This document shows, one piece after another, positions 12,001 through 15,000 of a DNA stretch of 64,000 nucleotides (its first letter is position 1; every line of letters starts with the position of its first letter). Position numbers: made by a program. Source of the DNA: Escherichia coli (GTDB taxonomy: Bacteria; Pseudomonadota; Gammaproteobacteria; Enterobacterales; Enterobacteriaceae). The DNA is taken from the NCBI RefSeq assembly GCF_045037415.1, contig NZ_CP173438.1. The stretch is one strand, 5' to 3'.

Positions 12001-15000
12001 TGTCTCATATTGTATTTTGAATAAGCATGCTACCGCCCTTCCGGAAATTACCCGTATCAACCGGGACCAGAATCCTGTGTAACAAATCAATTCAACCAGA
12101 GACGATTTTAACTCTGAGCACTATAGAATAATGATCTACAAATGTTCAATATGGTGGGTATATCTATTACCGTATCGAAACAGGTTAGCGCATTACACCA
12201 TAAGACATAGTAAAAACGAGTTTATTTGAAATATATTACTTAAATCAGTATAAAACTCCAGAAAAAAAATAACAAAAAGAAATACATTTAATTAGCGCGG
12301 TAATAATTTTCAGGTTATTAAATTTATAACATGGAGAATTTTAACGAAAACTGACTGAAACAAATCAGACCAGTTAACCAGTCAGTCGGTTTTATGATTT
12401 CACTCACTATACTTTGTTTCATAAGGATTTCAGGATCTGCCAGACTGCGCAGAAATGATGCTTACGAATACACAGTAAAGGCAATGTCATTTCCGATACA
12501 GAGCCTGACATTGCCATAATGAGCTATTTATCTGAAAAACGACAGAATATGATGTTTTATCGTAACGTAATTTTAAGTTCTCAACTTATTGAGACATATT
12601 GTCTTTTTTACCCATGTGGTCATTTTTCATCCCATCCGTTTTGCTCATGTGTTCTTTCTCCATTTTCTCTTTATCCATTGCATTTTTGCACATACCATCC
12701 TTGCACATTTTATCATGCGCGCTGGACATGCTGCCTTTTACTTCATGTGTTTTATCCATTGTGTCTGCAGCCTGAGCATTGAACATGAACAGCGCGGATA
12801 GTACAGTTACAGAAATAATATTTTTCATGGTTCCTCCTCATTTTTAACAATTGTATCAACAACCACCAAACCAGTTATAACCCTAGTCTTCCCAGTACCC
12901 CCCCGGAAAATGATTAGTGACCTCTATAACCTGAACATGCTTGGGGTTTTTATATCCCAGCTTAGTAGGGATACGTATCTTTATGGGATAGCCATATTCT
13001 TTTGGCAATACCCTGTTATTCCATGTCAATGTCAGCAATGTTTGTGAATGTAGTGCTGTCGCCATATCAATACTGGTGTAGTAACCATCGACGCAACGAA
13101 AACTGACGTATTTTGCCCGCATATCGGCACCAATCAGCGTCAGGAAATGCCGGAATGGTATCCCTCCCCATTTTCCTATTGCACTCCATCCTTCAACACA
13201 GATATGACGGGTTATCTGACTCACATGCTGCATGTTATACAATTCAGACAAAAACCAGTTACGGTTATCACGTACCAGCCCCCGTATTTCCAATTTATAA
13301 TCCTAGCCATCAATTACTGGGATCTCTTCTTCTCCATAGAAGGCATTAAAAGGGAATGGAGTGGTAATGTCCTCTGGAAGATATTCTGGTGCCACACTGT
13401 TTTTGCTGAACAGAAAACTTTGAATCCGGTCATTAAATCTGGATATACGGAACAATGCTTTTTCAATATCATCATTATTGCTTATATCACAGCCAGTCAG
13501 CATCATAATTCCCCCAAGCGTCAGTCCCTGTTGGAGTAAACGACGTCTGTCCGGCGCAAGGATTTTTTCTGCATCTTTCACCACGTAATGGGCATCACTG
13601 TCAGACAAAAAATGTTTTTTCTTCATTAGTGACCCCGTATCATAGATAACAATGCACGCGGAACCAATAACACCATAACCAGGTGAATAATAATAAACAG
13701 TACCATAATGTTCATGCACAGAAAGTGGATATAACGCACTGTATCATAACCACCGAATAGTATAGTCAGAAGGGAAAACTGAACGGGTTTCCATAAAACC
13801 AGACCAGACAATAGCAGAGCAGCGCCATCTAAAATAACAGAATATAGGCGACTTTTTGCACCATATTGTATTCCTGCATATTCGTATGATGCAGCTTTCC
13901 ATACAGTGCCTGCGTAAGGGATTCTTTCAGTGAGGTCCATGACAGCGGGAAAAACTTGCTCCGGAAACGTCCGCTACAAATTCCCAGAGTAAGATAGATC
14001 CTGGCATTAATCAGCAGAATCCACATCAGGGCGAAGTGCCACAGTAACGCACCACCAAGCCAGCCACCGAGAGTTAATGCTGCCGGATAGTTAAAAGAAA
14101 ACAAAGGAGAAGCATTATAAATGCGCCATCCACTACATATCATGCCTGCGACAGTAACAGCATTAATCCGGTGGCAACAGCGTAACCACAGAGGATGTAT
14201 TTGTTTTAACGGTAATGGCTGCATTATGTGATCTCTGTCTGTAAACTAAGTATATTATGGAAAGGAATGTTCATCACATCCTCACAAGAGTTTAAAAAAA
14301 ATGTGATAATTCATCGTCAAATGCTGGGGTAAAATTCAGATAAAGAATATGTGGATAACTTTTGATGAATAACGTAAAAAAAATACTGCTGATGGAAGAT
14401 GATTATGATATTGCAGCTCTGTTGCGGCTTAATCTGCAGGATGAAGGGTATCAGATAGTTCATGAAGCGGATGGCGCCAGAGCTCGTTTATTACTAGACA
14501 AGCAGACCTGGGATGCCGTAATACTTGATCTTATGCTGCCTAATGTTAATGGGCTGGAGATTTGCCGTTATATCCGTCAGATGACCCGTTATCTGCCTGT
14601 GATTATCATCAGTGCCCGTACCAGCGAAACCCACCGCGTCCTGGGACTGGAAATGGGGGCTGATGACTATCTACCGAAACCCTTTTCCATTCCGGAGCTG
14701 ATTGCCCGCATCAAAGCGTTGTTTCGTCGTCAGGAAGCCATGGGGCAAAATATTCTCCTGGCAGGTGGACTGATTTGCTGTCACGATCTGTGCATCAATC
14801 CATTTTCACGTGAAGTTCATTTGCATAATAAACAGGTTGATCTTACCCCACGCGAGTTTGATCTGCTGCTCTGGTTTGCACGTCATCCTGGCGAAGTTTT
14901 TTCCCGTCTTTCACTGCTGGATAATGTCTGGGGGTATCAGCATGAAGGATATGAGCATACAGTCAACACGCATATCAACCGTCTTCGTGCCAAAATTGAA

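Follow-up and report, generated by a model that had tools for sequence, protein, structure and literature searches.

C3568, a small methionine-rich secreted peptide beside the hemolysin genes of Escherichia coli: a predicted MXKDX-repeat protein and probable oxidant sink

The small minus-strand open reading frame (ORF) at positions 12586–12828 of a 64,000-nucleotide stretch of the Escherichia coli contig NZ_CP173438.1 (assembly GCF_045037415.1), called the window here, is the orthologue of c3568 of strain CFT073. Judged from its sequence, the product C3568 is a divergent member of the MXKDX-repeat/MrpX family, and it probably acts as a disordered periplasmic methionine sink for HOCl and peroxides, a role modelled on MrpX of Azospira suillum PS. 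The gene and its circuit are already known from the literature of 2015 and 2021 (PMC4436054, PMC8550376). In the window, the genes of the two putative redox partners, c3567 and c3566, are pseudogenes, and therefore the full redox cycle cannot be run from this locus.

The ORF starts with ATG, comprises 80 codons and ends with TAA. The Shine-Dalgarno sequence GAGGAGG (12833–12839, minus strand), located 4 nt before the ATG, is closer to the consensus than the GAGGAAG of UTI89 (A at 12834). Codons 1–20 (12769–12828, minus strand) encode a predicted Sec signal peptide, MKNIISVTVLSALFMFNAQA/A, with a basic n-region, an AXA site and cleavage after AQA20, the N-terminus reading MKN-IISVTVLSALFMFN-AQA/ADT. 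The mean Kyte-Doolittle hydropathy of the h-region is +2.0 as against −1.5 in the mature part. The mature peptide (12589–12768, minus strand) has 60 residues, with 12 Lys, 10 Met (16.7%), 8 Asp, 5 Ser, 4 His, 4 Glu, 4 Gly and 2 Cys. The share of D/E/K is 40%, and that of M/K/D/H/E is 63%, which confirms the enrichment described in an earlier note on this DNA while its wording, "almost entirely M/K/D/H/E", overstated the extent. PGAP annotates the ORF as WP_000789528.1, a "hypothetical protein" identical to C3568 of CFT073. Together with this annotation and the expression of the gene in CFT073 (see below), the exact ORF, the strong Shine-Dalgarno sequence and the signal peptide bear out the claim of a small secreted Met-rich repeat protein.

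Both the methionine enrichment and its periodicity exceed chance. The probability of finding at least 10 Met in 60 residues is ~6e-6, assuming a background Met frequency of 2.8%. Successive methionines of the mature peptide are spaced by 10, 7, 5, 5, 5, 5, 6, 5 and 6 residues, and seven or more spacings of 5–6 were obtained in just 6 of 100,000 composition-preserving shuffles; the 7 M-x-K motifs were matched by just 9 of 100,000. A spacing of 5 would spread the methionines all round any helix rather than on a single face. The AlphaFold2 model has a pLDDT of 55.6 and a pTM of 0.19, and this low confidence is compatible with a disordered peptide. Plus-strand ORFs of 87, 70 and 58 aa overlap c3568; none is annotated as a gene, and we attribute them to the low complexity of the sequence. 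These opposite-strand frames and the lack of a Pfam match are what could be cited for c3568 being itself a spurious frame in low-complexity DNA. Nevertheless, this idea has a vanishingly small probability and is already refuted by the Shine-Dalgarno sequence, the signal peptide, a Met periodicity far above that of shuffles, a syntenic ORF kept across dozens of species, a curated family match and the CFT073 transcripts (PMC8550376).

That family match, TIGR02953 ("pentapeptide MXKDX repeat protein"), was the sole one obtained for the peptide (35.2 bits, E 8.8e-9); Pfam gave none. The score falls below the curated cut-off of 41 bits, which would explain the "hypothetical protein" label of PGAP. 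The architecture expected of the family is a protein of ~70–130 aa in which tandem M-x-K-D-x repeats come after a signal peptide; C3568 has the signal peptide and then degenerate period-5 Met-x-Lys repeats. The scores of syntenic relatives grade from 123.7 through 66.7, 56.8, 47.3, 41.3 and 36.9 bits down to the 35.2 of C3568, the paralogue on IncF plasmids (41.3) passing the cut-off. An exact M-x-K-D was counted once in C3568 and 4–14 times in the other Enterobacterales orthologues compared, so that C3568 is the most degenerate member among them; this degeneracy may reflect relaxed constraint. Moreover, C3568 occupies the same slot after cytochrome b and molybdoenzyme as the above-cut-off MXKDX proteins of Kluyvera, Enterobacter, Rahnella and Pseudomonas.

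Two profile searches extended the comparison. The first returned 264 clusters at E ≤ 1e-3, with three or more M-x-K motifs in 146 of the 148 newly returned matches analysed, and the second returned 880 clusters at E ≤ 1e-8; among the matches listed for the latter, most were named "pentapeptide MXKDX repeat protein". Low-complexity similarity can inflate apparent homology. A single-sequence homologue search returned near-identical E. coli variants only, since both the 5-mer word index and the low complexity of the query limited its reach. No labelled Azospira MrpX was found among the matches of either profile search; the homology of C3568 to this protein is asserted on the basis of two papers (PMC8550376, PMC4436054) and of common family-type features. 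The exact 80-aa sequence is present on at least 1000 contigs, in some sources under the name "pentapeptide MXKDX repeat protein".

The neighbourhood of the gene was followed through other genomes with the alignment of the molybdoenzyme; the peptide alignment had no sufficiently conserved stretch. Of 77 assessable species/loci, 54 have an MXKDX-type Met-rich ORF downstream of the orthologous molybdoenzyme, with a start 7–151 nt beyond it. A YedY-like reductase is present in 80 of 80 loci, with cytochrome b upstream of it in 79. The same five-gene cassette was found in Rahnella and on IncF plasmids. The single contigs around distant peptide matches were only 0.7–1.8 kb long and uninformative for context.

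These data bear on a metal-binding role, which the earlier note had proposed for copper or silver. SilE/PcoE-type proteins are small, secreted, disordered and Met/His-rich, with paired H/M motifs. C3568 is likewise small, secreted and Met/His-rich, and one could think of a periplasmic Cu(I)/Ag(I) sponge or metallochaperone resembling these proteins or the Met-rich loops of copper proteins, with Met, His and Cys as ligands. The mature part indeed combines its 10 Met, 4 His and 2 Cys in possible ligand motifs, namely H-x-x-M (AHDKM), two H-M pairs and C-x4-C (MCKDGMC), and the Cys pair is kept in 13 of 16 Enterobacterales orthologues, which always have two Cys or none. In addition, the sensor kinase OrhK reaches 143.8 bits on the heavy-metal sensor model TIGR01386, below the threshold of 292.6, and at one orthologous locus, in Rhizobium, the flanking genes encode a two-component system with a heavy-metal annotation. 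However, the repeat is a period-5 M-x-K-D-x rather than paired H/M; the family consensus has neither His nor Cys, and most non-enterobacterial members also lack them. No metal-binding family was matched in NCBIfam or Pfam at E ≤ 0.01, no cop, cus, pco or sil gene occurs in the five annotated contexts, and the conserved neighbours are the cytochrome b and the YedY-like reductase. Induction has been demonstrated with peroxide and macrophage ROS (PMC8550376), and Met oxidation is all the biochemistry described for the family (PMC4436054). Copper or silver binding thus gained no positive evidence, and we consider this role improbable.

The regulation of the operon points instead to oxidative stress. 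Divergently from the operon lie, on the plus strand, orhR (c3565, 14365–15084), encoding an OmpR-family response regulator, and orhK (c3564, 15085–16557), encoding a sensor histidine kinase, both identified from family models, PGAP and the work of Gu et al. (PLoS Pathog 2021, PMC8550376). The inverted repeat TCACA-N15-TGTGA at 14282–14306 is the likely site of OrhR (C3565); it has one match in the window where 0.08 is expected by chance. In CFT073 this repeat immediately precedes the −35 box of Pc3566, the promoter to which OrhR binds; the c3566–c3568 operon is activated by OrhR, ends with c3568 and is co-transcribed with hlyCABD (PMC8550376). Expression of c3568 was seen by RNA-seq, qPCR and RT-PCR and is among the most OrhK/OrhR-dependent of CFT073, with a log2FC of −5.42 in the orhR mutant and −5.17 in the orhK mutant (PMC8550376). 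It rises inside macrophages in a DPI-sensitive manner, and the Pc3566-EGFP operon reporter is induced by tert-butyl hydroperoxide (PMC8550376). Hemolysis requires Pc3566 and none of the three coding sequences, deletion of c3568 causing no change, and oxidative-stress phenotypes were reported for c3564–c3567 only (PMC8550376). The identity of C3568, its synteny and its regulation and co-transcription in CFT073 are thereby shown. The co-transcription with cytochrome b and molybdoenzyme, the OrhK/OrhR dependence and the synteny support the earlier assignment of the peptide to the same stress module as its neighbour; the link of this module to hemolysin expression had been missed there, as had the c3567 nonsense mutation and the c3566 frameshift.

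The circuit of CFT073 can be recognized in the window, where an identical protein is encoded in the same slot between molybdoenzyme and hlyC; the OrhR box, orhRK and ops are likewise shared. On the minus strand, hlyC (10891–11403) and hlyA (7805–10879) lie downstream in the same transcript. About 70 nt after the c3568 stop, the MFE structure has a hairpin (12480–12515, minus strand) with a 10-bp stem, GGCAAUGUCA/UGACAUUGCC, followed by UUUACUGUGUAUU; the region has a z of −1.7, which is not significant. Since transcription continues to hlyC, this hairpin is at most a leaky terminator. An exact match to the ops consensus (GGCGGTAGCATG, 12026–12037, minus strand) is situated in the c3568–hlyC spacer, on the read-through path to hlyCABD. 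Ops is the loading element of RfaH. A promoter/terminator scan of 11300–14500 gave sites no commoner than in shuffled sequence, and only one weak terminator-like site (12368–12383).

The c3567 orthologue (12883–13626, minus strand) encodes a YedY/MsrP-like molybdopterin-dependent oxidoreductase with a Tat RRR motif, the lipobox LTGC/D and a PF00174 match. It is a pseudogene, as indicated by the "internal stop" of PGAP and by alignment with CFT073 and UTI89, which shows codon 108 of the window changed in frame from CAG to TAG (13303–13305); the gene of the window is also 9 codons shorter at its end, with TAG at 12883–12885 where UTI89 has CAG. The nonsense allele was found in 53 of 281 E. coli genomes with the locus (19%), whereas c3567 of CFT073 is uninterrupted (247 aa). 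Even the intact UTI89 enzyme reaches just 73.4 bits on the MsrP model NF003767, the cut-off of which is 207, and among solved structures its closest relative is E. coli YedY (1xdq, E 9e-11). "MsrP-like" is a fair description and "MsrP" is not. The earlier note was thus right that c3568 adjoins an MsrP-like gene, though the likeness is distant and the neighbour is a pseudogene.

The second pseudogene is the c3566 orthologue (13626–14224, minus strand), a PF01292 cytochrome b presumed to be the membrane electron donor. PGAP calls it "frameshifted", which agrees with the alignment and with Pfam matches on both halves. Relative to UTI89, in which both c3566 and c3567 are intact, a 1-bp deletion near 13838 brings the frame to a stop at 13829–13831. 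This frameshift allele is present in 157 of 282 E. coli genomes with the locus (56%) and is common to the window and CFT073, which leaves the published c3566 phenotypes in need of an explanation. Rescue by slippage was considered and rejected, as the deletion lies in CTGATTATT, which has no homopolymer run; a split cytochrome of two polypeptides is conceivable. The product matches PF01292 (Ni_hydr_CYTB), and no MsrQ model was matched at the thresholds used.

The closest functional precedent is MrpX of Azospira suillum PS (Dsui_0158), in which Met makes up 20% and charged residues 44% (Melnyk et al., mBio 2015, PMC4436054). Azospira MrpX is induced by RCS, becomes oxidised in vivo and returns to the reduced form, and the purified protein reacts with hypochlorite (PMC4436054). 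The same authors listed the operon of the UPEC island as yedYZ-mrpX (PMC4436054). C3568 resembles it as a small periplasmic peptide rich in Met and charge (16.7% and 40%) and as the product of the last gene of an oxidant-induced operon (CFT073 data), after a YedY-like molybdoenzyme and its membrane partner. Differences were also noted. An ECF sigma/anti-sigma pair, SigF/NrsF, is the regulator in Azospira and a two-component system in E. coli; the oxidants studied were chlorite/hypochlorite in the former and organic peroxide/host ROS in the latter. Unlike in the Azospira MrpX system, the E. coli enzyme is of the second "kind of YedY" with a PF01292 cytochrome b as partner, and the peptide differs by its C-x4-C pair and its degenerate repeat. 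A further relative is the bcrXQP operon of Brucella melitensis, which contributes to HOCl resistance (PMC8315932); there, the peptide gene bcrX comes first in the operon, the regulator is the ECF sigma BcrS and the only mutant used was the triple one (PMC8315932).

Taken together, these likenesses suggest the following course of events. OrhK would sense peroxide or host ROS, and OrhR, acting at TCACA-N15-TGTGA, would then drive one transcript from cytochrome b through molybdoenzyme and peptide and, by read-through, into hlyCABD. The Sec-exported peptide of ~60 residues, charge-balanced and with Met at about every fifth residue, would reach the periplasm, where its exposed thioethers may be converted to methionine sulfoxide and thereby use up HOCl, chloramines or peroxides before envelope proteins are damaged. 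In intact modules, such as those of UTI89, IncF plasmids and many other proteobacteria, the Tat-exported, membrane-tethered YedY-like molybdoenzyme would reduce the sulfoxides, fed by cytochrome b. Oxidation and re-reduction of C3568 itself are inferred from Azospira MrpX. As regards the make-up of an MrpX-type system, the Met- and charge-rich, predicted-unfolded periplasmic peptide is present in the window, and a functional co-operonic molybdoenzyme with electron donor is found in the UTI89 allele and is missing here. With the enzyme pair inactivated, the peptide of the window may serve as a single-use sink or may be recycled by the core-genome MsrPQ. E. coli MsrPQ is encoded outside the window and could still recycle the peptide. 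The idea, also voiced in the earlier note, that such a peptide absorbs oxidants and is restored by MsrP-type enzymes coincides with the published model for Azospira MrpX (PMC4436054), while the cognate repair genes are broken in the window.

With such decay of the operon, c3568 might be a dispensable passenger here, the operon being kept only as an OrhR-controlled lead-in to hlyCABD and the ORF remaining intact merely through its shortness. Of the three operon genes, c3566 and c3567 are disrupted at the frequencies given above, hemolysis depends on the promoter and not on the coding sequences, and the repeats match the consensus unusually poorly. The c3568 ORF also circulates in variants with frameshifts or in-frame losses of repeats. 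An argument for purifying selection from the intactness of the ORF was dropped: 2–3 disruptions in ~1370 nt give just ~0.35–0.5 expected in 243 nt, less than one, and therefore the intact ORF is no evidence of selection. Against the passenger status stand the wide occurrence of the exact 80-aa sequence, identical in CFT073 and the lineage of the window, a Shine-Dalgarno sequence nearer the consensus than that of UTI89, and the retained number and spacing of Met. Core MsrPQ could moreover still recycle the peptide, and some of the truncated variants may be assembly errors. On balance, we regard the loss of function as rather unlikely and prefer the methionine sink.

A less probable reading is that the peptide has a reductase-independent role and is under selection in the many UPEC lineages, ST131 and CFT073 among them, with decayed c3566 and/or c3567. 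It could then be an oxidant buffer that is delivered together with hemolysin and works alone or is recycled by MsrPQ, or a redox- or metal-responsive periplasmic factor that feeds back on OrhK through its conserved Cys pair and Met/His residues.

For the methionine sink and its operon, the wider meaning lies in the published virulence-linked circuit to which c3568 belongs, in which OrhK/OrhR turn on an oxidative-defence operon and hemolysin together. In a large proportion of the E. coli carriers the defence half has decayed, by the c3566 frameshift in ~56% and by the c3567 nonsense mutation in ~19%, while the peptide gene and the read-through from promoter to hly are kept. This suggests that selection acts mainly on hemolysin control. 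Exact matches to the c3567 nonsense lineage of the window include O25b:H4-ST131 strains.

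The small ORF at 12586-12828 (-) runs from ATG to TAA over 80 codons, with a Shine-Dalgarno sequence, GAGGAGG (12833-12839, -), 4 nt 5' of the ATG. Its product consists of MKNIISVTVLSALFMFNAQA and, after the predicted cleavage site, ADTMDKTHEVKGSMSSAHDKMCKDGMCKNAMDKEKMEKEHMSKTDGMKNDHMGKKDNMSQ. Residues 1-20 are arranged as the n-, h- and c-regions of a Sec signal peptide, and cleavage would fall at AQA↓A, as judged from inspection and hydropathy only. The mature part of 60 residues contains 12 K, 10 M, 8 D, 4 H, 4 E and 2 C, D+E balancing K, net; the share of M/K/D/H/E is 63%, which falls short of the "almost entirely" of the earlier note. 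The Met count has P ~6e-6 and the observed Met-spacing measures were matched by 6 to 32 of 100,000 composition-preserving shuffles; both the Met content and the period-5 spacing far exceed chance. A spurious ORF is excluded, and the small secreted Met-rich repeat protein first recognized in the earlier note is borne out by the ORF, its Shine-Dalgarno sequence, the signal-peptide layout and the Met statistics. AlphaFold2 returned a pLDDT of 55.6 and a pTM of 0.19, and on any helix the period-5 Mets would spread over all sides.

The sole family match of the peptide is NCBIfam TIGR02953, "pentapeptide MXKDX repeat protein" (E 8.8e-9, 35.2 bits). The curated threshold of 41 bits is not reached, which would explain the PGAP label "hypothetical protein". 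Syntenic relatives from Pseudomonas, Kluyvera, Rahnella and Enterobacter score 123.7, 66.7, 56.8 and 47.3 bits, respectively, and a paralogue on IncF plasmids scores 41.3 bits (76 aa) or, as its longer allele, 36.9 bits (82 aa); these plasmids differ in the (MDK)n repeat number of the peptide. In the window peptide the Mets keep their spacing and seven M-x-K motifs remain; an exact M-x-K-D occurs once, vs 4-14 times in the Enterobacterales orthologues set beside it. By its sequence the peptide is classed as a divergent edge member of the MXKDX family. A profile search of 1.84 billion representatives gave 264 clusters at E<=1e-3 and a second one 880 clusters at E<=1e-8. Among the matches listed, the source names were mostly "pentapeptide MXKDX repeat protein", and some sources already give this name to the exact window-peptide sequence.

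The window is a segment of a UPEC pathogenicity island. In window order, cnf1 (166-3210) is followed by hlyD and hlyB, hlyA (7805-10879) and hlyC (10891-11403), and the 1.2-kb spacer from hlyC to the small ORF contains an exact ops element (12026-12037). Then come the genes of a molybdopterin oxidoreductase (12883-13626, -) and a cytochrome b (13626-14224, -) and the divergent response regulator and histidine kinase (14365-16557). CFT073 encodes the same protein (WP_000789528.1) in the same place, as c3568. A 4.3-kb segment is 100% identical in many human E. coli isolates, O25b:H4-ST131 strains among them, and was found in 296 of 5426 complete E. coli genomes.

The C3568 peptide and its module are already known, from 2015 and 2021. 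Melnyk et al. (2015) described the Azospira peptide MrpX as periplasmic, RCS-induced, 20% Met and 44% charged; it becomes oxidised in vivo and is later reduced again, it also reacts in vitro with hypochlorite, and a yedYZ-mrpX operon on UPEC pathogenicity islands was expressly noted (PMC4436054). Gu et al. (2021) named the two-component system OrhK/OrhR (c3564/c3565) and termed C3568 "a small methionine-rich peptide" homologous to MrpX (PMC8550376). The strongest OrhKR dependence was found for c3566 (the cytochrome b), c3567 (the molybdoenzyme) and c3568 (log2FC -5.4), which are co-transcribed with read-through to hlyCABD; OrhR binds the promoter beside a TCACA-N15-TGTGA repeat (PMC8550376). 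This repeat occurs once in the window, at 14282-14306. In the same study tert-butyl hydroperoxide induced the Pc3566 reporter, the operon genes went up in macrophages with the rise blunted by an NADPH-oxidase inhibitor, stress phenotypes were reported for c3564-c3567 only, and hemolysis was unchanged on c3568 deletion (PMC8550376). bcrXQP of Brucella is a third example (PMC8315932). On this locus, full-text search on c3566/c3567/c3568 gave nothing beyond one review and the work of Gu et al., as paper and as preprint.

A molybdoenzyme scan with one genome per species retained 80 loci from Gamma-, Beta- and Alphaproteobacteria. The cytochrome b gene lies directly 5' of the molybdoenzyme in 79 of these, and about 24 have a divergent OrhRK-like pair. 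Where the downstream sequence sufficed for the count (77 loci), 54 carry a Met-rich MXKDX ORF with a signal peptide, starting 7-151 nt 3' of the molybdoenzyme. A five-gene cassette of the same make-up resides on Rahnella plasmids, and E. coli and Klebsiella IncF plasmids (loci L002 and L003) hold an intact paralogous cassette of ~73% DNA identity (response regulator, histidine kinase, cytochrome b, molybdoenzyme and MXKDX peptide), which adjoins repA on many conjugative plasmids and has IS26 flanks. The peptide-molybdoenzyme linkage is therefore real and ancient, and the placing of the peptide in the same stress module, first suggested by its position, is borne out.

The neighbour had been called MsrP-like, and the nearest solved relative of the intact molybdoenzyme is indeed E. 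coli YedY/MsrP (1xdq, E 9e-11); nevertheless, it scores 73 bits on the MsrP model, below the 207-bit cut-off, and the cytochrome b that partners it belongs to PF01292, not to the MsrQ type. Throughout the family (alignment A2) a Tat RR motif precedes a lipobox whose Cys is invariant (LTGC↓D; window 13480-13560, -). With the +2 Asp rule applied to this lipobox, a Tat-exported lipoprotein tethered to the inner membrane is suggested, whereas MsrP is soluble.

Alignment of the window with CFT073 and UTI89, as DNA and proteins, revealed broken partner genes. A 1-bp deletion near 13838, common to CFT073 (its locus L004, 4067-4665), frameshifts cytochrome b, which RefSeq marks as a pseudogene in both and which is intact in UTI89 and 79 orthologous loci. 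The molybdoenzyme is cut off at codon 108, ahead of the Moco domain, by CAG->TAG at 13303-13305, a lineage-specific amber codon absent from CFT073 and UTI89, and a second TAG (12883-12885) shortens its C-terminus by 9 residues in both the window and CFT073. In UTI89 the cytochrome b, molybdoenzyme and peptide genes are all intact. By short diagnostic queries, 157 of 282 E. coli genomes carry the frameshift allele of cytochrome b, and 53 of 281 the molybdoenzyme nonsense allele. Because the molybdoenzyme is truncated and cytochrome b frameshifted, the cognate recycling step cannot run from the window's locus. Repair by the MsrP-type neighbour, as earlier proposed, is thus right about the module and overlooks that both genes are disrupted here. 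Only the core MsrPQ of E. coli, encoded outside the window, could take over recycling of the peptide. Gu et al., who report c3566 deletion phenotypes in CFT073, mention no frameshift (PMC8550376); in the frameshifted strain these phenotypes could reflect polarity or a cytochrome split in two. At 12834 (-), the Shine-Dalgarno sequence is GAGGAGG in the window and CFT073 vs GAGGAAG in UTI89, i.e., the broken-reductase alleles have the ribosome-binding site nearer consensus.

The best-supported reading, which we regard as probable, is a Met sink: the peptide would be disordered, highly soluble and periplasmic, its exposed Mets would take oxidation sacrificially, and the oxidised form would be recycled wherever the reductase is intact. 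A serious rival, though an unlikely one, is that in the window's lineage the peptide is a dispensable passenger on the hly leader transcript, as the decay of the neighbour genes and the degenerate repeat would have it. With 2-3 disruptions per ~1370 nt, <1 is expected in the 243 nt of the small ORF, so that its intactness is by itself no evidence of selection; public data also hold frameshifted and repeat-deletion variants. Binding of metal, proposed earlier for copper or silver, appears quite improbable: the His, H-x-x-M and C-x4-C features would suit it, but family, gene context and induction lend it no support.

Among 16 Enterobacterales orthologues, those of loci L014-L027 included, the mature part has exactly two Cys in 13, none in 3 and one in 0. 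The spacing in the 13 is 5, i.e., C-x4-C (eight cases), 8, 10, 13 or 20 (twice), and the window pair lies in MCKDGMC (12690-12710, -). This two-or-none pattern suggests that the Cys belong together as a pair, in a disulfide or as a redox/metal site; the MrpX model leaves the pattern unaccounted for. The earlier note was correct in observation and largely so in interpretation, while it missed the partner-gene breakage and its content had been published; the residual value lies in the pseudogenised reductase genes, the Cys pair and the biochemistry of the C3568 peptide.

Elsewhere on the island, a second exact ops-like element, GGCGGTAGCGTG, is located at 24566-24577 (-), ~87 nt 5' of a three-gene cluster. 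It comprises a C5 DNA methylase (23433-24479) with strong type II methyltransferase model matches in PADLOC, a 986-aa HEF_HK/double-HATPase protein (20468-23428) with a weak match to a type II restriction enzyme model, and a Response_reg_2 protein (18787-20454), and may be a methylase-linked conflict system. Further cargo, according to the annotation of an identical genome, occupies 26782-32108 (-), 37294-41139 and 41802-50000: a cdiI/filamentous-hemagglutinin/ShlB-type two-partner secretion set, dsdCXA for D-serine utilisation, and a cutCD choline-TMA-lyase microcompartment cluster.
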